A stretch of DNA of 62,071 nt, the filler included, from an uncultured bacterium (lineage in GTDB: Bacteria > CAZSTA01): assembly GCA_964609495.1 (NCBI GenBank). It is 6 parts of 6 records of this genome, joined end to end, with 100 filler letters (N's around TTAATTAATTAA, not from the genome) between each part and the next. Parts side by side here need not be neighbours in the genome. Positions count along the whole stretch, not along the records: positions 1 to 10,511 come from CAZSTA010000128.1; 5 more parts are not named here. One strand, written 5' to 3'. Within the stretch, counting starts at the first letter, position 1, and each line of letters begins with the position of its first letter. A program made the translations under genes and the position numbers. The notes under the pieces were generated by a model that saw only the letters and a list, made by a program, of their open reading frames with translations, was not told where the DNA came from and did no database searches. Shown in pieces: positions 1,852-52,139 of the stretch.

Positions 1852-3759
1852 CTATCTTAGAGTTCTTTTGTTACCAACCCTCCTTGTGAGAGAGAGTTCG
1901 TCGAAGTACTCCAACAAAGGTAGAGCATATTTGCGGCTAGTCTTCAATATATCCCTGAACTCTCCTAATGATATCTCCCCCTTAGAGGAGATCTCTTTTA
2001 AAAGAAGGTCCTTAGCCTCCTCTATAGCCTCTCGATGGAAAGATACTTCGGATGATACTTTGACCAAAATCTTCCTCTCGGACAATAATTGGACGATCTC
2101 CTCGATCTCCTCTTCTCCAAAGTTAAGCTCATCCTTTATATCCTCTATGCTAGGAGGGGAAAATTTATCAGTTAAAAATCTCCTCTCTATCTCCTTCTGA
2201 AGTTGCTCTTGAGCAGGAGAGAGACGGATCTTATGTTCTGAAAGCCTCACCAGATTCCCCTCCTCCTTTATCTTCCCCTCCTCTTCCATCTGCGATAATA
2301 TCCGTCCAAATATGCGAAGGTCTAGTGCTACCTTATTAGCCAACTCTGATTGGGATATCCCCACTTTAAGGGGGTTGATAGTATGAAATTGCGTCATTAT
2401 GTCTATTATCTTCCCCGCTATATCCTCATAAGTTTCATTCAATATAAATAAACGGGAGGTATCTTTGTCCAGAGCCTTTATTTTCCCCTTAACCATCAAC
2501 GTATCGAGAGCATCAGCTACTTCACCCTTAGTCAACCCACTTCGTTTAATTAACTCTTTCTCTGTCAGGGGATATCTCCTTGTTTCTCTAAGTATCTGTT
2601 CCAATAGTTGTTGAGGAGAACCACTCTCTTTAACAAGTAATCCCTTTATTATCTCCTGCTTAAACCTCTTATGCTTAGGGGGATTGCTCTCTAAGACCGT
2701 TCCCCCTCCTATAGTTCTCATCGGGGAATAACTGCGGATCACATATCTATCTCCCCTTTGGGTTACCAATTCCGCTTCCAAGCGAAATTGAACTAAAGCA
2801 GAATCGCCAGGTTTCAATTCCTCTTTATCTATGAGAGAAATCCTACCCATTATCTCGCTCGTCCCTAAGTGAACTCTGACCCTAGCTCTGTTGACGAGGG
2901 GTTTAGGGGCACTCGGAAGAAGTTCAAGCCTAGCGGTGAACATATAGGTTGGCTCTAGATAATCAGGGGTGGCAAGAACATCACCTCTTGTTACCTCCTC
3001 TTTAGCTATCCCTGCCAAGTTGATAGCAGTCCTCTGACCTTCAAAGGCCTCCTCTACATCTTTATTATGAGTTTGAATACCTCTAACCCTGGCTTTCTTC
3101 CCCTTCGGTAATATCTCGACTATATCACCGATCTTTACCAAACCCGATATCAGCGTTCCGGTAAGCACTGTTCCGAAACCCAGAACAGTGAAGACGCGAT
3201 CGATAGGAAGACGAAAGAATCCCTTGTTATCGCGTGGCTTCAACTTAAGAGCTACCTCATCGAGTTTCATTAGAAGCTCTGATATACCCTGCCCCGTCAC
3301 CGCTGATGTCTCTACGATCGGCGCATTCTCTAATCTGCTAGCTTTCAGTTCGTTGCGAATATCCTCCTTTATATATTCAAGCCATTCCTCATCTACTATA
3401 TCTATCTTCGATAGGGCTACCAATCCACTTCTTATCCTCAACAACTCTAAAATATCCAGATGCTCCCTGGTTTGAGGCATAAAACCCTCATCTGCCGCGA
3501 TGACTAACAGCGCTAGATCTATACCACTAGCTCCGGCCAACATATTTTTGATGAAGCGTTCATGCCCCGGAACATCTACTATACCTGCTCTCAAACCGCT
3601 GGGAAGGTCCAGATAGGCAAAACCTAAATCTATGGATATGCCTCTTTTCTTCTCCTCAGGTAACCTATCCGTATCAATCCCAGTTAGAGCAGAGATTAAC
3701 GCAGTCTTACCGTGATCGATATGCCCCGCAGTGCCTATTATTATATGTTTATCTTCCAT
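1852..3759 (-). CDS. selB: Selenocysteine-specific elongation factor SelB
   Basis: [20 protein letters not shown]-terminal winged helices with [13 protein letters not shown]. Confidence 0.98.
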
Positions 3760-3767
3760 CAGCTAAA

Positions 3768-4502
3768 TCAATATCTAAAATTCTCATGATAAGGCTCTTG
3801 CTTCTGAAAAAGCCTAACTAACGCTAAACCTACTACGAAACCCCCTATATGGGCAAACCAAGCTACTCCTCCGCCCTGCTCAACCGAAGCTGTTAAGGAA
3901 AGAATCCCACTGAAGAATTGGATGATTATCCAAAATCCCAATACATATAAAGCGGGTATCTCCACTAGACGAATGAAATATCCCAGGAAAAGCAAAGTTA
4001 GGACCCTAGCTCTAGGGAAGAGCAGGAGATAAGCTCCGAGAACACCAGCTATAGCTCCACTTGCCCCTATCGATGGGATCTGAGAATTAGGTCCGCTAAG
4101 GATATGAGCTAGGCTTGCCCCCACTCCACATATAAGATAGAAGATGACAAATCTAAATGGTCCCATTATATCCTCGATATTATTCCCAAATATCCAGAGA
4201 TAAAGCATATTACCAGCGATATGGACGAATCCAGCGTGCATAAACATCGAGGATAATATCGTAAGGTAGATGGGACTGGGTCCTGGCATATGGTATATTA
4301 TAGTTTGCCCATAGCGAACTGGATTGACAAGATCGACATTATGAACTATCTCATAGGGAGTAGTTCCCCAAGAGGCGATAAATAAGTTGAGTCTATCCCC
4401 TAAAGCAAGCTCATATAAGAAAACCAATACATTAATGGCTATGATCGCTATAGTAGCTACCGGGATATTTCGCGTGGGATTATTATCTTTCAAAGGAATC
4501 AT
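3768..4502 (-). CDS. Rhomboid intramembrane serine protease
   Basis: HxxxxHIAGNM, catalytic GASG, AHIGG. Confidence 0.95.
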   Translation of the reverse strand: MIPLKDNNPTRNIPVATIAIIAINVLVFLYELALGDRLNLFIASWGTTPYEIVHNVDLVNPVRYGQTIIYHMPGPSPIYLTILSSMFMHAGFVHIAGNMLYLWIFGNNIEDIMGPFRFVIFYLICGVGASLAHILSGPNSQIPSIGASGAIAGVLGAYLLLFPRARVLTLLFLGYFIRLVEIPALYVLGFWIIIQFFSGILSLTASVEQGGGVAWFAHIGGFVVGLALVRLFQKQEPYHENFRY

Positions 4503-5896
4503 AAGAATACCCCCAAAGCGGAGATTATCTCCTCAACTTCATCCTCAAAGACAGTTCGTAGGTCTAATAGCAATTTATCAGCGGAGATTCGGGCGAGAAT
4601 AGGAGGATCGTTAAATCTCAGTTTCATCTCTAACTCGTTCACCGAAGAATGTTTAGGGACGATGCCCACCAATTTAGTCGGTATGTCTGCCGTCGGGCAA
4701 CTCCCCCCTCCTATCCTAGAGCAACCATCGAGCATCTCTATATCCGCTCTATCTCCCACCTTCTCCTTTAGACGATCTATAAACCTAGAAAGTTTATTTG
4801 TGATATCGGGGAGAGATATAGATATCATATTCCATACGGGGATAGCCTCTATTCTCTTCTCCAAGTATAATCTAAGGGTAGCTTCTAAAGCAGCTATGGT
4901 CAACTTTCCCACTCGAAGGGCTCGGAGGAGATGATTTCGCTTCATCCTCTCGATATACTTCCTCTTACCAGCTATTAATCCGCACTGAGGACCACCCAGA
5001 AGTTTATCACCGCTACAGGTGATTATATCAGCTCCTGCTCTCACACTATCAGTAAGCAGAGGCTCCTCGCTTAAACCGTATCCCCTTAGATCTGATAAAG
5101 CTCCGCTACCTAAATCATACATAATTGGGATGGATCTTCTCTTTCCTAGCTCGACCAATTCATTTGGAGAAACGGAGGCGGTAAAACCTATGATATGAAA
5201 ATTGCTAGTATGAACTTTAAGTAATAAGGAGGTATTCTCCGATATAGCTTCCTCGTAATCCCTGAGGTAGGTCTTATTCGTGGTTCCCACCTCTACTAAT
5301 TCGGCAGAGCTCTTCTTCATAACCTCGGGGATACGGAACGAACCCCCGATCTCTATCAACTCTCCCCGAGATACTATTACCTCCCTCCCCTTAGCTATAG
5401 TATCCAAAGCCAGAAGCACTGCGGCGGCATTGTTATTAACTACTAAAACATCCTCAGCCCCGGTAAGTTTTACAAGTAACCTTTCAAGCGAAGCATATCT
5501 TGACCCACGCTGGCCCTGATTAAGATCGAACTCCAGATTAGTATAGCGACCTGCTGTTTTATCTAGCTCCTCGAGAGCTTCCTTGCTCAGAGGGGCTCTC
5601 CCTAGATTGGTATGCAATATCACCCCGGTAGCATTTATTAATCTCCTAAGAGATATTCTATCCTCTCTCTCCAACTCGTCTTCAATGAGATATAACATAT
5701 ATTCACAGGATAAATCGATCCTATCTAATTCACTCTCCTGACTTTCGAAGATACTCTGCCTGATCTTCCCTAATATCGAGCGCGTCGCCTCTACTAACTC
5801 TTGATGATCGCTAGAGGGGTTTCGCGATTTTAACCTGCCCACCAGCTCATTTACTGCTGGTAATCTTCTCAGGTAAATTTTTCTTTCCGATTTCAT
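4499..5896 (-). CDS. selA: L-seryl-tRNA(Sec) selenium transferase
   Basis: INATGVILHTNLGRAPL, GGSFRIP, SGDKLLGGPQ. Start at ATG 5896, overlapping the upstream stop (ATGA). Confidence 0.97.
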   Translation of the reverse strand: MKSERKIYLRRLPAVNELVGRLKSRNPSSDHQELVEATRSILGKIRQSIFESQESELDRIDLSCEYMLYLIEDELEREDRISLRRLINATGVILHTNLGRAPLSKEALEELDKTAGRYTNLEFDLNQGQRGSRYASLERLLVKLTGAEDVLVVNNNAAAVLLALDTIAKGREVIVSRGELIEIGGSFRIPEVMKKSSAELVEVGTTNKTYLRDYEEAISENTSLLLKVHTSNFHIIGFTASVSPNELVELGKRRSIPIMYDLGSGALSDLRGYGLSEEPLLTDSVRAGADIITCSGDKLLGGPQCGLIAGKRKYIERMKRNHLLRALRVGKLTIAALEATLRLYLEKRIEAIPVWNMISISLPDITNKLSRFIDRLKEKVGDRADIEMLDGCSRIGGGSCPTADIPTKLVGIVPKHSSVNELEMKLRFNDPPILARISADKLLLDLRTVFEDEVEEIISALGVFL

Positions 5897-6441
5897 ATCA
5901 AAAGGAGTATCAGAATTGTTATCGCTAAAGTTGGTAGAATAAAGCAACCAAACCTCTTCGCTATTCCCAAACCCTTGGGATTCCTTTTCCAAGAAGGGGA
6001 GGCTAATAACTTGTTGGCTTTCTTCATCTCATCTACTGCCTGACCGAACTTCTTCTGCTTTCGATATATTACTGCTAGGTTATTATGAGGAGTTGGATAA
6101 TTAGGCTCTAACTGGATCGCTTTGTTATAGCACTTTATAGCCTCCTCATAGTTCTCCTCCTCCTTGCATATATTACCCAAGTTATTGTAAGCTCTTGCGA
6201 ACTCAGGATCCATCTCTATTGCCTGCTCAAACTTTCTTCTCGCCTGATCGAACATCCCTTGCTCGGCATAGATAATGCCCAACTTATTATGACCCAGAGG
6301 AGATCCTGGATCCAGCTCGATCATTCTCCTGAATTGAGTTTCAGCTAATTCATATTCCTTTCGCCAGAGACACATCTCTCCTAATCTTAGTATCTCTAAT
6401 ATTTGCTTCTTTTGCTCATTTCTATCTTCTTCGTTGTTCAT
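5893..6441 (-). CDS. TPR repeat protein with C-terminal membrane anchor
   Basis: 3-4 TPRs (AYNNLG motifs) and a hydrophobic C-terminus. Confidence 0.85.
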   Translation of the reverse strand: MNNEEDRNEQKKQILEILRLGEMCLWRKEYELAETQFRRMIELDPGSPLGHNKLGIIYAEQGMFDQARRKFEQAIEMDPEFARAYNNLGNICKEEENYEEAIKCYNKAIQLEPNYPTPHNNLAVIYRKQKKFGQAVDEMKKANKLLASPSWKRNPKGLGIAKRFGCFILPTLAITILILLLI

Positions 6442-6836
6442 ATCTATCGAACTGAAATCCCCTCACAATTTAGGCTCAATGAAACCCTCTATTAGAGAGA
6501 TTCTGAGTTTTAACAAGAAGCATTCTCTACCTAAATATAACATACTTTCCCGCAAATTTCAAGTAATTTTCGGGTAGAGGATAATCGAAGCTCTCCCAGA
6601 GGGGAAGGGATCCTCCCCTCTACCCATCTTATATTATTAGTTCGATGGAATCAGAAGAGCTTCAGTAGATCACAAAGTTTAGATTTTATTCACTGACAAA
6701 TACATTTTGCAGTTGAAAATCATCGAACTTTTTCGGAAGAGAAACTGTTTTGTCTCGATTTTAGAATAGACTACCAGAAAAAGGGACGAAGATTATCCAC
6801 CTTTAGAATCTGCTGAGATTACTTAATGGCAACGTA

Positions 6837-7709
6837 TTATTCGTGTCTATGAGAGAGAAACCAGTTGTATAGATCCTCTCCCTCATATACACGCGTCCAA
6901 GCATTATGCCCTAGATCCTCGTGTATGGTCAAGCGAACTGTCTTGTGCCCTGCTTTCTCAAGAGCATTCGCCATTGTGTAGATCCACTGTGGTTTAACAA
7001 GGGAATCCCGTCCACCTTGAAAGATCCAAATGGGCATATCTACTTCTGCAAGTCGATGGGCAAGTTCTGGATTTCCACCTCCACAGATAGGTGCGATTGC
7101 TGCCCAGCGATCAGGATGGCTTGTTGCCATATACCAAGTGCCATAACCGCCATAGCTCAGGCCGGTCAGGTAAACACGATCCTGATCTGCACGATAATCG
7201 CGCAGTGTCGCATCGACCATGTTCAGAAGATCCTGTTCACATCTCTGCCAACCGTTTATTGCCCCTTCCTTTCCCCAAGCTTCTGTTGTTCCAGAAGGGG
7301 TATTATCCGGTGCGCGTGTCATAGGCTGATCAGGTCTCTCTTCATCCAGGCGCGGTGGCACACCGGATAGAAGGCGCTTCGGCTTTGGGGATCCTTCGCG
7401 CAAACGAGCCTGATCATGCATACCAAACACTGGTAGCTGTGGTCCGATCATAATAAATGGAAGGTCTCTGCGTTGAATCCAGGCTTCTCCAAGCGGACCG
7501 TGTAGTAATACGTAATCCAGATCCTCTAACCCGTCCCCACGTTCTCCTCCACCGTGAAGAAACAGAATCACAGGCCAGAGTTTTTCTCTTTCTGTTTCGT
7601 ATCCTGTGGGCAAATACAGAAAATACTCTCGTTGTTGGTTCGTAGCCATACTTTGATAAGACTTCCTCAGCAATTGCGCTTCAGATTTTTGCTCACCTGC
7701 GATTGCCAT
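6837..7709 (-). CDS. Alpha/beta hydrolase (predicted peptidase/esterase)
   Basis: PVILFLHGGGE, GLSYG nucleophile elbow, D..V and GH triad residues. Start at ATG 7709 with GGAGGG. Confidence 0.88.
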   Translation of the reverse strand: MAIAGEQKSEAQLLRKSYQSMATNQQREYFLYLPTGYETEREKLWPVILFLHGGGERGDGLEDLDYVLLHGPLGEAWIQRRDLPFIMIGPQLPVFGMHDQARLREGSPKPKRLLSGVPPRLDEERPDQPMTRAPDNTPSGTTEAWGKEGAINGWQRCEQDLLNMVDATLRDYRADQDRVYLTGLSYGGYGTWYMATSHPDRWAAIAPICGGGNPELAHRLAEVDMPIWIFQGGRDSLVKPQWIYTMANALEKAGHKTVRLTIHEDLGHNAWTRVYEGEDLYNWFLSHRHE

Positions 7710-7835
7710 CACCGAACCCTCCCGTTTTGATTTTGAAGGCATATTTTGTATATACATTCCCTGGATGAAATTCTACCTTTGATTTCACCTCCTTGTTTTT
7801 CAAATAGTCCATCAAGTGGACTTTTTATAGATGCC

Positions 7836-7942
7836 CAGTAGATCGCAAAGTTTAGATTTTATTTACTGACAAATCCATTTGGAAGAGAGACTGTTCTGTT
7901 TCGATTTTAAATAGACTATCAGAAAAGCTGAGATTACTTAAT
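7836..7942 (+). repeat. Internal, deleted copy of the left end of the 6663-8746 element
   Basis: CAGTAGATCGCAAAGTTTAGATTTTATT...GCTGAGATTACTTAAT aligns to 6663-6828 with two internal deletions. Confidence 0.85.
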
Positions 7943-7947
7943 TTACC

Positions 7948-8655
7948 TCACTTCTTCTTTTTCTCTTTCTTCTCCTTCTTCTCCTCTTTCTTTTCCTCCT
8001 GCTTAATAAGCCCCTTCTTCTTGCCTTTTCCCTTCCAACCCTTAACTTTAGCTATCTCCAATTTCTTCACTCTACCACTCTTTACATCTATAGTCAATTT
8101 GATCGGAGCCCCTGGTTTTAATAGCAATATCTTACCTAGGAGCTTAGCAGAGATCGGAAGATAAATCTCTTCACCCTTATAGCTAACAACTAAAAGGGGA
8201 GGAGTTACACTGGTATTGACTTCAATAAAATTCGCAACGATCTTAGGTTTAAGGATATTCACTATCACTGGAGTGATAGATATCTCCTCTGGGCTCTCAT
8301 AATCGACGATTATTATCTCTTCATAAGCGATTGTGGGTTGCTCCATCCTTATCTCTACCATCTTCTTAGTGGTATCATCTATGGATATATCTATCGGAGC
8401 ACCTATCTCATACTGTTTAAGTTCAATAAGAGCATCCTTAGTTAGAGGGATATCTATATAATCACCCTCATGAAGCACAGTAATCTTGGGACTAGTGATC
8501 TCGATATTGATCTCCGCGATTATTCCAATGATCTGGGTATCCTCGGTCTCCACAACGGGAGCTTCGGCAGGATTAATCGCTATATCAGCCATAGCAGAGG
8601 TTGGAAAGGAAAAGAGGCTGATGACAACTGATGCTAATATCAAATATCTTCTCAT
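7948..8655 (-). CDS. Hypothetical secreted protein with two similar small beta domains and a Lys/Glu-rich tail
   Basis: Signal peptide (..SAMA-D), internal similarity (IDIPLT..IGAPIDISID / IYLPIS..PGAPIKLTID), poly-K C-terminus. Confidence 0.7.
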   Translation of the reverse strand: MRRYLILASVVISLFSFPTSAMADIAINPAEAPVVETEDTQIIGIIAEINIEITSPKITVLHEGDYIDIPLTKDALIELKQYEIGAPIDISIDDTTKKMVEIRMEQPTIAYEEIIIVDYESPEEISITPVIVNILKPKIVANFIEVNTSVTPPLLVVSYKGEEIYLPISAKLLGKILLLKPGAPIKLTIDVKSGRVKKLEIAKVKGWKGKGKKKGLIKQEEKKEEKKEKKEKKKK

Positions 8656-8774
8656 CTGTTTTGTTCACTCCTTTCCATCAATTAGGTAAAAGAGGGACGG
8701 AAAATTATCCCCTTTAAGCTTAAATTATACACTTTGTGATCTACTGAGCTTCAACTTCATCCCTCAAATCACGA

Positions 8775-10322
8775 TCACATCTCCTCCAAACTAGCGGTTA
8801 CACTAACTTGCTGACCAGCTTTCACGTATATACTTTCCACCCAGGCTTTATAATTTGGCTTAGTTATCACTATCTGATGAACTCCCTGAGCCACATTTTC
8901 AATGGTGATAGGAGTATTACCTACCTCGCTACCATCCAAAAATATTCTGCCTCCTCGAGGAACAGAGGAGATTGATATCGAGCCATCTTTGGCGATCTCC
9001 ACTAACTCAACGGTGTAAGATACGTTCTGACCAGGGGGTATATTCGCCTTTCTGACCCAGTCCAAATATCCTTCCTTAGAGACTCTTATTATATGTTCAC
9101 CTCGGGAAACCTTGATTCTATCAAGGGGAGTGTTTCCTAATAGGCGCTCATCTAAGAAGATTGTAGCCCCTGATGGAATAGAAGCCAGGCTTAGATATCC
9201 GCTTTCCACCCCACTAGGAGTAAGCACAGCATCAATATAGACGGTCTGTCCAGCTTTTACCTCGACACTTCTCTGCCAGGCCCTATACCCCTCCATCCTT
9301 ATCTCAATTTCGTATCTTCCCGCCTCGACTTTCTTCTCCAACTTGGTTCTTCCTATCATCGCTCCGTTCCAGTAAAGATCAGCTCCTCGAGGCTGGGAAT
9401 CGACCGATACTATCCCCTGATAGACCTCGGGATAAGTTGGATTCAGTATGATATGGATTGAATTGGGAATATCAGCTTTAATGGTAATACTACTCTCCCA
9501 CCTATTATATCCATCCTTGAGGATATCAAGGCGATGAAGTCCGACAGATATATCATATAGAGCTAAAGGAGTATTCCCCACATACTTCCCATCTAGGTAA
9601 ATTTGCGCTCCCTCAGGATCTGAGGTCAGCTCTACCCGTGTTTTAGCTTTCTTCTCTTCGGTGATGCTGGGAATGGGAACAACCTGACTGAATCTCTCCC
9701 TCTCAGTGGAATCCATATAAGGAACAACCTGACTGAATTCCTCCCTCTCAGCGAAATCCACATGGAAGATGGTTGTATCCTCAGCCCAATCTTCCGGAGC
9801 AGTAGGTCTTATTATTTTACTGGAAGGGGCTATCGTTATTAGAGCGCCGGTATCCACCTCAAATCTGGAAAGATCGGCGATCGTCAAAGATCCTGGCTGA
9901 ATAGTAGCGATTGCTTTGATTATCTCCACTCCAATAGGCTCTCTAACCTTAAATTCGAAATTAGAGCCCGATGATGGGAAACAATAGACTTCATTCTTGA
10001 CTATGAAGTTATCAGTAAGATACCTATTGGGAAATATCACTTGGACTCTACCATCTGGAGTTATATCGAAGAGCGTTAGATAACAATCCTGATTAGATTT
10101 GAAATAGATGACTAGATTCTCTCCCGGCTTATAGGTAGCCATATCGCCCTTATCCACCCACACATCTATATCGAATCCTGTGGGAGAGGGATATAAAATA
10201 GTATCTTTCTCAACTGGCTCAAGAGTTAAATTGGTCTTCATATCAACCGCTATAGCGGAAGAAGATATGATAATCACCAGAAGTGAGGATAATATGGTTA
10301 TTGTTAGATATTTCATAAACAC
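8775..10322 (-). CDS. Secreted DUF4384 + PEGA-repeat protein
   Basis: Signal peptide, YKPGE..YLTLFDI..VIFPN (DUF4384), then four SxPxGA..GxTP PEGA domains. Confidence 0.85.
   Translation of the reverse strand: MFMKYLTITILSSLLVIIISSSAIAVDMKTNLTLEPVEKDTILYPSPTGFDIDVWVDKGDMATYKPGENLVIYFKSNQDCYLTLFDITPDGRVQVIFPNRYLTDNFIVKNEVYCFPSSGSNFEFKVREPIGVEIIKAIATIQPGSLTIADLSRFEVDTGALITIAPSSKIIRPTAPEDWAEDTTIFHVDFAEREEFSQVVPYMDSTERERFSQVVPIPSITEEKKAKTRVELTSDPEGAQIYLDGKYVGNTPLALYDISVGLHRLDILKDGYNRWESSITIKADIPNSIHIILNPTYPEVYQGIVSVDSQPRGADLYWNGAMIGRTKLEKKVEAGRYEIEIRMEGYRAWQRSVEVKAGQTVYIDAVLTPSGVESGYLSLASIPSGATIFLDERLLGNTPLDRIKVSRGEHIIRVSKEGYLDWVRKANIPPGQNVSYTVELVEIAKDGSISISSVPRGGRIFLDGSEVGNTPITIENVAQGVHQIVITKPNYKAWVESIYVKAGQQVSVTASLEEM
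9677..9764. repeat. 45-bp in-frame tandem duplication within the PEGA gene
   Basis: GGAACAACCTGACTGAAT..TCCCTCTCAG..AATCCA occurs twice. Peptide: EREEFSQVVP / ERERFSQVVP. Confidence 0.8.
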
Positions 10323-10344
10323 TCTGCGGTTCGAAAACTCCCCT

Positions 10345-10395
10345 AAAAGGTAACTTTTGCTTCATAAGAAATTTAAGGTTAAAAAGTTACCTTTT
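10345..10395. repeat. Family B palindrome (reverse orientation)
   Basis: AAAAGGTAACTTTT-GCTTC...GGTTA-AAAAGTTACCTTTT. Confidence 0.85.
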
Positions 10396-10511
10396 ATTAT
10401 ATGTCAAGGCACAGTCGAACTTCTAATCGTGGAGAGAAGAACCGCCCTCCTTTCCCTTAAAGAATACCTGCTTACCTATTTAGGCTAGCAATCCAGATTG
10501 CTCTTTGAAAA

Positions 10512-10611
10512 NNNNNNNNNNNNNNNNNNNNNNNNNNNNNNNNNNNNNNNNNNNNTTAATTAATTAANNNNNNNNNNNNNNNNNNNNNNNNNNNNNNNNN
10601 NNNNNNNNNNN
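10512..10611. other. Artificial contig linker
   Basis: N-run with a TTAATTAATTAA all-frame stop spacer. Confidence 0.99.
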
Positions 10612-17060: not shown

Positions 17061-17088
17061 TGACAAAATTTCTACATCNNNNNNNNNN

Positions 17089-21032: not shown

Positions 21033-21132
21033 NNNNNNNNNNNNNNNNNNNNNNNNNNNNNNNNNNNNNNNNNNNNTTAATTAATTAANNNNNNNNNNNN
21101 NNNNNNNNNNNNNNNNNNNNNNNNNNNNNNNN
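21033..21132. other. Artificial contig linker
   Basis: N-run with TTAATTAATTAA. Confidence 0.99.
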
Positions 21133-31543: not shown

Positions 31544-31643
31544 NNNNNNNNNNNNNNNNNNNNNNNNNNNNNNNNNNNNNNNNNNNNTTAATTAATTAAN
31601 NNNNNNNNNNNNNNNNNNNNNNNNNNNNNNNNNNNNNNNNNNN
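31544..31643. other. Artificial contig linker
   Basis: N-run with TTAATTAATTAA. Confidence 0.99.
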
Positions 31644-41884: not shown

Positions 41885-41984
41885 NNNNNNNNNNNNNNNN
41901 NNNNNNNNNNNNNNNNNNNNNNNNNNNNTTAATTAATTAANNNNNNNNNNNNNNNNNNNNNNNNNNNNNNNNNNNNNNNNNNNN
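41885..41984. other. Artificial contig linker
   Basis: N-run with TTAATTAATTAA. Confidence 0.99.
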
Positions 41985-52039: not shown

Positions 52040-52139
52040 NNNNNNNNNNNNNNNNNNNNNNNNNNNNNNNNNNNNNNNNNNNNTTAATTAATTAANNNNN
52101 NNNNNNNNNNNNNNNNNNNNNNNNNNNNNNNNNNNNNNN
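52040..52139. other. Artificial contig linker
   Basis: N-run with TTAATTAATTAA. Confidence 0.99.

Follow-up and report, generated by a model that had tools for sequence, protein, structure and literature searches.

The stretch of DNA analysed here, 62,071 nucleotides long and referred to as the window, holds a segment of 2084 bp at 6663-8746 that combines inverted-repeat ends (TIRs), an AGCTT duplication and two genes, and encodes no transposase. This segment probably belongs to the mobile insertion cassettes (MICs), as a non-autonomous ISH3-type element moved in trans. It has IS-type TIRs at both ends and a target-site duplication (TSD), lacks a transposase and carries at least one passenger CDS, which is the set of features that defines a MIC. 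Elements of this kind are known, and this is an uncommon one and no new class. That the element moves in trans, that it does so by cut and paste, and the sequence of steps set out below are my inferences.

Boundaries and insertion site

The window consists of ~10 kb MAG contigs strung together via N/TTAATTAATTAA linkers; the contig at 1-10511 contains the element. An earlier, sequence-only reading of this DNA had reported perfect 16-bp TIRs, and CAGTAGATCACAAAGT was indeed found at 6663-6678 (+) and 8731-8746 (-) with 0 mismatches, and a third time at 7836-7851 (+) with 1 mismatch. These 3 matches in the window compare with a mean of 0.06 after shuffling, and at least 3 were reached in 0 of 100 shuffles. 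A longer, imperfect repeat reaches 26 bp: the left TIR (6663-6688, + strand, tip CAGT) and the right TIR (8721-8746, - strand) are identical at 23 of 26 positions, with the first 16 perfect. The ends are of the CAGTAGATC type. AGCTT follows immediately beyond both tips, at 6658-6662 on the left and 8747-8751 on the right, the same when both are read directly, as had been described before.

Logan contigs of four runs (X2, X3, X4, and X5) were compared with the locus. The occupied junctions are bridged by contigs of independent runs (6612-7008, 6456-6778, and 8487-8768), the last of these being an X2 contig that crosses the right junction 8746|8747, and L002, a contig from another metagenome, corresponds to window positions 4886-6830 with 4 differences in 1945 nt. 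An empty-site joint was absent from the contigs of the four runs, which drop rare variants and which, in X3-X5, do not cover 8721-9323. The target would have been the spacer that extends from the stop codon of a PEGA-domain gene to the hairpin and promoter preceding TPR-selA-rhomboid-selB. Both cargo genes read in the same direction as the host genes. The host itself is an uncultured, deep-branching bacterium from a salt marsh.

ISH3-type ends

Members of the ISH3 family have CRGT termini and a 5-bp duplication that runs from A to T (PMC2266710, Table 1). Both tips of the element read CAGT and its duplication reads AGCTT, which fits the family on either count. The TIRs of haloarchaeal ISH3 copies begin with CAGTAGTTGC in 4 of 4 cases (L004-L007, with 4-bp duplications), and their first six bases, CAGTAG, are identical to those of the element; tip, duplication and haloarchaeal copies together support the ISH3-type assignment that the earlier reading had made. 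The family encodes a DDE transposase with the signature Y-(2)-R-(3)-E-(3)-(R), and since a transposase is absent from both the element and the window, the element is at most a non-autonomous ISH3 derivative and no IS. It is also longer, at 2084 bp, than the 1225-1500 bp of the family. A 2008 account restricts the ISH3 family to archaea (PMC2266710), and a 2022 account places it in fewer than nine phyla, mostly Stenosarchaea (PMC9208149). No family match above cut-off was obtained in any of 401 Pseudomonadota genomes sampled. Here, in contrast to a family that is treated as essentially archaeal, the host is bacterial, and ISH3-type ends carry ordinary genes in a deep-branching lineage. The 26-bp end pair is concrete enough to be used now for finding other members of this element family.

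Repeat anatomy and the origin of the block

The left-end unit (6663-6827, + strand, 165 bp) lies 3' of the hydrolase gene and aligns to an internal, deleted copy at 7836-7942 (+), which lies 3' of the orphan gene and retains an intact TIR core (15/16). The internal copy departs from the left end by two deletions (27 and 29 bp), a single 1-nt indel and 7 substitutions, and at position 10 of its TIR it has the G variant that L003, a metagenome contig discussed below, also shows. The presence of a left-end copy after each gene, as claimed by the sequence-only reading, was thus confirmed. The same reading had pointed out a direct motif of ~28 bp near both ends, which proved real and part of a longer match: positions 6745-6810 (+), including this hairpin motif, are a direct repeat of the right subterminal region at 8656-8718 (+), with a local alignment score that was reached in 0 of 500 shuffles. 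At the right end the match stops exactly at the ATG of the orphan gene, which the subterminal region adjoins, and a terminator-like hairpin is located there on the - strand (8712-8693). Directly 3' of the hairpin motif in the left unit, 6808-6817 (+) resembles the outer tip of the right TIR plus 2 flank bases, being identical to 8739-8748 at 9 of 10 positions. Searching both strands of the window for this 10-mer with up to 1 mismatch returned 5 matches, namely the 3 TIR tips, 1 unrelated site and 6808-6817. The 12 bp past the tip-like remnant (6816-6827) are common to the left and internal units.

Two further candidates were rejected. The stretch 7758-7835, which separates the hydrolase gene from the internal end copy, is unlike the element ends, with 40 to 390 of 500 shuffles reaching its alignment scores, and the motif hairpins are no more stable than shuffled sequences (z -0.36 and -0.63; -0.36 to -0.76 over all hairpins). 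An Rfam search of 6300-9000 gave no match.

The left-end unit looks like a whole miniature element whose inner (right) end was crippled by an internal deletion, and taken alone (165 bp) it is similar to a MITE that has lost its right TIR by deletion. MITEs are non-coding, have TIRs and a TSD and are at most a few hundred bp long, while the whole element measures 2084 bp and contains 2 genes. Judged from the repeats, the interior suggests three partial MITE units that form a chain and flank genes: unit 1 (6663-6827) would have kept its outer TIR intact while its right end was reduced to the tip, unit 2 (7836-7942) would be more deleted, and unit 3 would be a right half-unit (8656-8746). In the likeliest history, MITE copies would have occupied the spacers flanking two adjacent genes at an earlier site, where the inner MITE ends decayed before the outer pair moved everything between them. 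An ISH3-family DDE transposase, encoded elsewhere, would then recognise the two intact outer TIRs, and the 2084-bp block would be excised from the earlier site and pasted into the present spacer, duplicating the 5 bp AGCTT. The left and internal copies differ by 7 substitutions over ~107 nt while the TSD is perfect, which indicates that the block had been put together before it arrived here.

The sequence-only reading had instead proposed stepwise accretion, in which a MITE of ~200 bp captures genes singly, each with a fresh left-end copy, and so acts as a cassette-collecting vehicle. Behind each gene, within 5-9 bp, stands a left-end unit whose final 16 bases (GCTGAGATTACTTAAT) are the same in both cases, a shared junction for which independent MITE insertions do not account, and L002 breaks off at 6830, where the left unit has its inner edge, which hints weakly at a variable point. 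Against this, the units number only two, at a single locus, and these ends were not seen around any other cargo; the junction between the left unit and the hydrolase gene is crossed without variation by contigs of X2, X3, and X4, the window ORFs include no recombinase or integrase, and the G at position 10 that the internal copy shares with L003 hints at a separate MITE lineage rather than at duplication in place. There is no known mechanism for a DDE transposon to add units of gene plus end. The empty MITE copies and the other cargo that the earlier reading had suggested looking for were not recovered, nor was a second full copy or an empty allele, and capture by gene-plus-end steps was not borne out and is unlikely. 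It is quite improbable that the alternation of genes and left ends reflects real capture, in which ISH3-type miniature elements would build up transposable arrays gene by gene, each gene with a new end and no integrase involved; given that near-identical ends lie beside an archaeal-type transposase, arrays of this kind could carry genes across the divide between archaea and bacteria in sediments. MITE units that flanked genes and lost their inner ends explain the anatomy at least as well as accretion does, and this flanking-MITE route is one known origin of MICs and composite elements. What speaks against independent MITE insertions is the stretch 6816-6827, whose presence in both the left and internal units they leave unexplained.

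Search for a cognate transposase

That the element lacks a transposase, as stated in the earlier reading, was borne out by the ORF scans, which detected none in the region's ORFs or in another 38 window ORFs of at least 150 aa, and by tblastn with three ISH3 transposases, which found no remnant in the window (best E 0.072, outside the element). The ORFs scanned in the window also contained no recombinase or integrase.

A transposase close to a matching end was found in the metagenome contig L003. Here, CAGTAGATCGCAAAGTGTAGATTATA, which is identical to the internal copy at 25 of 27 positions, lies ~0.8 kb 3' of a transposase of 382 aa whose best family is ISH3 (NF033541, E 1.6e-52), at 178.5 bits and thus under the cut-off of 225. 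The protein carries Y-x2-R-x3-E-x3-R, as YSNRWGIETSYR, and two passenger genes (DUF5678 and an aspartyl protease) are situated between it and the shared end. A left TIR was not found in L003, where the only match at up to 3 mismatches is the right one. For the transposase with the same ends that the sequence-only reading had called for, this ISH3-like enzyme near one such end, without the left TIR, is a candidate; since that TIR is missing and the score stays below 225, transposase and end are linked by proximity alone. Relatives of the L003 transposase numbered 0 in the viral contig collection.

L003, with its ISH3-like transposase followed by two passenger genes before the shared end, might be taken as a model for a decayed autonomous element, i.e., an ISH3-type IS with passenger genes (a transporter IS) from which the transposase gene was later deleted. 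The left-end copies in X2 and X5 are moreover followed by RBS- and start-codon-like sequence reading inward, as judged from a 30-letter consensus only. This origin is nevertheless rather unlikely: the tblastn searches revealed no transposase remnant in either the element or the window, the left unit is built like a miniature element, from a left part, a right part and the remnant of a tip, and not like the leader of a transposase gene, and the L003 element itself is without a located left boundary, having no left TIR match.

Recurrence of the ends elsewhere

Contigs from three of the runs (1 from X2, 2 from X3, and 1 from X5) match the left end inward from 6663, or from 6661 in the case of X5. 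Their outside flanks differ, none of them being the sequence that precedes the internal copy, and they diverge again past 6733, 6701, and 6696. Because contigs of other runs match from exactly 6663 inward with different flanks outside, the left end is a repeated, mobile terminus. Its occurrence at other loci is the only indirect support for the proposed movement in trans.

Scanning collections with a strict 21-nt TIR pattern yielded 1 match in genome contigs and 2 in metagenome contigs, where roughly 2 chance matches are expected per collection. One of the two metagenome matches is the same locus as the window. The genome-contig match, in L001 (Pseudomonas carbonaria), with no transposase within ~3 kb, was taken as a chance match. 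The TIR pattern had 0 matches in the viral contig collection, and the element DNA had no match in the plasmid collection.

That no mobile element exists here, and that 3' UTR or terminator modules shared by host genes coincide with a fortuitous TIR and AGCTT, is hardly credible: the repeat units do lie 3' of genes, one terminator-like hairpin is present and TIR copies in the 62 kb number only three, but the chance of a perfect 16-bp TIR together with an exact 5-bp duplication is estimated at <1e-4 for the window, the boundary 6662|6663 is common to unrelated loci in three runs, tip and duplication match one specific IS family, and the hairpin motif does not occur above chance elsewhere in the window.

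Relation to known systems

MIC231 from the Bacillus cereus group is derived from IS231, and the qnrS2 and qnrD MICs are further examples of elements that are presumed to be mobilised by a cognate transposase in trans. The element resembles these MICs in having IS-type TIRs, a TSD, no transposase and one or more unrelated passenger genes, whereas the ends of MIC231 are of the IS231/IS4 type and those of the element are ISH3-type, in a deep-branching uncultured bacterium. The additional near-intact left end and the crippled right end in its interior make it a chain of miniature units, unlike a two-ended MIC. In Tn10/Tn5-like composites and in MITE-flanked integrons, the outer ends of repeated units mobilise the intervening DNA, and as in composites of the Tn10/Tn5 type, the inner ends of the element are dispensable, and here they are decayed. 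Two clean, independent and complete flanking copies were not seen, given that there is only a half-unit on the right and that 12 bp are common to the left units. Integron cassette arrays have an integrase gene (IntI) beside the array and an attC site after each gene; the element differs from them in that no integrase was present among the scanned ORFs and that directly oriented transposon ends stand behind its genes. PMC3129680 lists MICs, together with MITEs and solo IRs, among the derivatives that are open to activation by a related IS. The element documents one path that accessory and orphan genes take when they move in uncultured sediment microbes.

Cargo genes

The hydrolase and orphan genes are the only long ORFs in the element, and their co-orientation, claimed earlier, was verified, both being on the - strand. 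The first (6837-7757, -, likely start at 7709, 290 aa) encodes an alpha/beta hydrolase that is carboxylesterase/PHB-depolymerase-like. Its Pfam matches are Peptidase_S9 (2.8e-14), Esterase, and DLH, its NCBIfam matches are under cut-off, and comparison with the PDB esterases 3wyd, 4q82, and 3doh gave E values of 1e-23 to 1e-25.

The second gene (7948-8655, -) encodes an orphan protein of 235 aa with a Lys/Glu-rich tail, which may be secreted according to its signal-peptide-like N-terminus. It comprises two tandem domains of ~55 aa (internal repeat E 6e-08). No relatives other than itself were detected in 5.8 billion clusters, phmmer against 1.84 billion representatives returned the protein itself only, and nothing was found in Pfam at E values up to 10. 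Leads in the Atlas were all <0.9 (DUF5666, BOF, and CusF-like), and the AlphaFold model is unusable at a pLDDT of 39.

The GC and GC3 z values of the two cargo genes (1.56/-0.93 and -1.59/-0.32) are within the host range, and composition was rejected as a mark of foreign origin, as both genes are host-like in this respect. The hydrolase has 4715 homologues, with 75-76% identity to the best non-self ones, and these relatives are about as close as those of the host GroEL, whose best matches show 71-75% identity and are scattered over several phyla.

Ends, duplication and insertion site

The element proper spans 6663-8746 (2084 bp) and lies wholly inside the first contig (1-10511). The sequence-only reading had described 16-bp perfect TIRs flanked by an AGCTT duplication, and both were recovered without mismatch: CAGTAGATCACAAAGT occurs at 6663 (+) and 8746 (-), with AGCTT adjoining both tips on the outside. 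A further match with one mismatch lies at 7836 (+), and three TIR matches were reached in 0 of 100 shuffles. The inverted repeat reaches 26 bp, of which 23 match. The insertion point lies between the stop codon of a PEGA/DUF4384 protein gene (8775-10322, - strand) and a strong hairpin (6596-6625, -19.4 kcal/mol) that precedes the promoter-like site of a TPR protein gene (5893-6441, - strand). Part of this region (6608-6638) resembles intergenic 477-507 (81% over 31 nt), and the two may represent a recurrent terminator-type motif of the host.

No transposase was found among the local ORFs and 38 further ORFs of at least 150 aa (Pfam, NCBIfam), and tblastn with three ISH3 transposases returned no remnant in the window under E 0.07. 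Transposase-less, TIR-bounded, gene-carrying elements are described in PMC3129680 as mobile insertion cassettes (MICs). The element probably belongs to this known kind, sharing TIRs, passenger genes and an absent transposase, but is less usual in having ISH3-type ends in a bacterium and nested miniature units. No paper listed in searches of the literature outside subscription journals describes an ISH3-derived MIC or a bacterial ISH3 MITE.

Nested miniature units

As had been claimed, a version of the left end stands downstream of each cargo gene, the second one deleted: the internal copy (7836-7942) aligns to the left unit (6663-6827), but 7 bases are substituted, a single-base indel occurs and two stretches of 27 and 29 bp are missing. 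Both units end 5-9 bp past a gene's stop codon. The 28-bp directly repeated motif noted earlier is likewise present, within a longer direct repeat (6745-6810 and 8656-8718) whose score was reached by 0 of 500 shuffles, and whose right-end copy adjoins the orphan cargo gene exactly at its start codon. Immediately past the motif in the left unit stands ATCTGCTGAG. Nine of its 10 positions agree with the right TIR's outer tip and the two flank bases next to it; with both strands considered, the window holds just one unrelated site that matches this 10-mer equally well. The left "end" is thus built like a complete miniature element, with a left TIR, a left part, a right part and a tip-only right TIR. 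A terminator-like hairpin lies just within the right end of the element.

On the likeliest reading, the block is a string of MITE units that lost their inner ends to decay, with the outer ends moving the whole. The perfect duplication, set against the 7 substitutions between left units, indicates that the 2.1-kb block was assembled before its arrival. Independent insertions of the units fit poorly, since 12 bp past the tip remnant are common to both left units. These shared bases are the best argument for stepwise capture of gene+end units, as first proposed, or for internal duplication. An intact internal left end means that 7836-8746, a sub-element of 0.9 kb, might be able to move as well.

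Left ends at other loci

Logan contigs from four marsh and salt-marsh runs (X2-X5) were compared with window 4500-10500. Both occupied junctions are spanned, the left one by contigs of X3 (6612-7008) and X5 (6456-6778), the right one by a contig of X2 (8487-8768); among the contigs compared, none ran from flank to flank skipping the element. Others match from 6663 (6661 in X5) inward with unrelated sequence outside (one contig in X2, two in X3, one in X5), and part from the window again after 6733, 6701 and 6696. As their outside flanks differ mutually and from the sequence preceding the internal copy, the left end occurs at other loci in these communities, in the same or different organisms, with its boundary exactly at the TIR tip.

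ISH3 assignment and a candidate transposase

The assignment of the ends to ISH3 held up: the CAGT tip and AGCTT duplication fit the CRGT termini and A-to-T 5-bp duplications given for the family in PMC2266710, and TIRs starting CAGTAGTTGC, with 4-bp duplications, were seen in 4 of 4 haloarchaeal ISH3 copies examined, which are close kin and count as one subfamily. Two of the four (L004 and L006, haloarchaeal plasmids) sit inside short-palindrome loops, CCCGCCG-TAAA-CGGCGGG in one case and CACGGC-TTTA-GCCGTG in the other, a hint that hairpin loops are preferred as targets. The family model was tested on 401 sampled Pseudomonadota genomes and 14 control genomes; it exceeded its cut-off in none of the 401, with weak matches in 14, and was positive in Haloferax and Methanosarcina among the controls.

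A strict 21-nt pattern matched two metagenome contigs. One (L002, 1945 nt, from another metagenome) is the same locus, equal to window 4886-6830 with 4 differences and ending 3 bases beyond the inner boundary of the left unit. The other (L003) carries the end CAGTAGATCGCAAAGTGTAGATTATA, which directly follows a stop codon. A 382-aa transposase lies 0.8 kb upstream of this end and scores best in NCBIfam against ISH3 (E 1.6e-52; 178.5 bits, under the cut-off of 225). It contains YSNRWGIETSYR, which has the Y-x2-R-x3-E-x3-R pattern reported for the ISH3 family in PMC2266710, and as a tblastn query it returned 211 plasmid records, with a haloarchaeal source for all 25 of those listed (27-34% identity).

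Chance has to be weighed here: by rough estimate, about two chance matches to the pattern are expected per collection, and the single match in genome_contigs, a Pseudomonas contig without a transposase nearby, was taken as a picture of one. A chance match beside a member of the rare ISH3 family would be a remarkable coincidence; transposase and end are linked by proximity only, with genes for a DUF5678 protein and an aspartyl protease between them. No matching left TIR was found in L003, and the contig may stop short of it. In L003 (1-3657), the genes that come before the shared end encode an N6/N4 DNA methylase that includes a LexA-like domain, a 50-aa ORF product, the transposase and the DUF5678 and aspartyl-protease pair. 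The contig may represent an element that carries passengers alongside its own transposase.

Cargo genes

The first cargo gene (6837-7757, - strand) encodes a serine alpha/beta hydrolase (motif GLSYG) that matches Peptidase_S9, Esterase and DLH in Pfam, PHA-depolymerase models below threshold, and the PDB esterases 3wyd, 4q82 and 3doh. Its homologues number 4715; leaving out the protein itself, the closest are 75-76% identical, and those named are from Anaerolineae MAGs. The esterase-like hydrolase is as close to outside proteins as the host GroEL is to its best relatives, a hint of lateral origin; GC and GC3 lent no support to a foreign origin of the cargo.

The second (7948-8655, - strand) encodes an orphan 235-aa protein, for which no relative was found in 5.8 billion clusters, among 1.84 billion representatives (phmmer) or in Pfam. 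No usable fold prediction was obtained, and the Atlas gave just weak leads to small beta-barrel domains. An internal duplication of ~55 residues (E 6e-08) and a start that is signal-peptide-like, provided translation begins at 8655, argue for a real protein that is predicted to be secreted.

Host and remaining features of the locus

The window consists of ~10-kb contigs ordered from longest to shortest, with N44-TTAATTAATTAA-N44 linkers between them (10512-10611, 21033-21132, 31544-31643, 41885-41984 and 52040-52139; an N10 also lies at 17079-17088). As contigs are merely joined at these points, gene neighbourhoods spanning them are not real. After the TPR gene follow the genes for SelA, a rhomboid protease and SelB, all on the - strand (selA/selB region 1852-5992). 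SelA, SelB and GroEL identify the host as a bacterium. Its GroEL reaches 71-75% identity at best in 5.8 billion clusters, with named matches scattered across several phyla, and all 8 host proteins checked fall at 90% identity into clusters without a named relative (7 singletons, one two-member cluster), leaving no close relative for synteny comparison. A match to the UshA-like "(seleno)protein" family NF041198 (28860-29627, E 1e-49, below cut-off), together with SelA and SelB in one genome, suggests that the organism probably makes selenoproteins.

The PEGA/DUF4384 gene contains a 45-bp tandem duplication (9676-9763, 88% identical) with the repeated peptide ...REEFSQVVP.... Just upstream of its start lies a palindrome of ~50 bp (10340-10395), at which X3 and X4 contigs are loose-ended on both sides; it is another repeated sequence in these communities, perhaps a further small mobile or terminator-like repeat.
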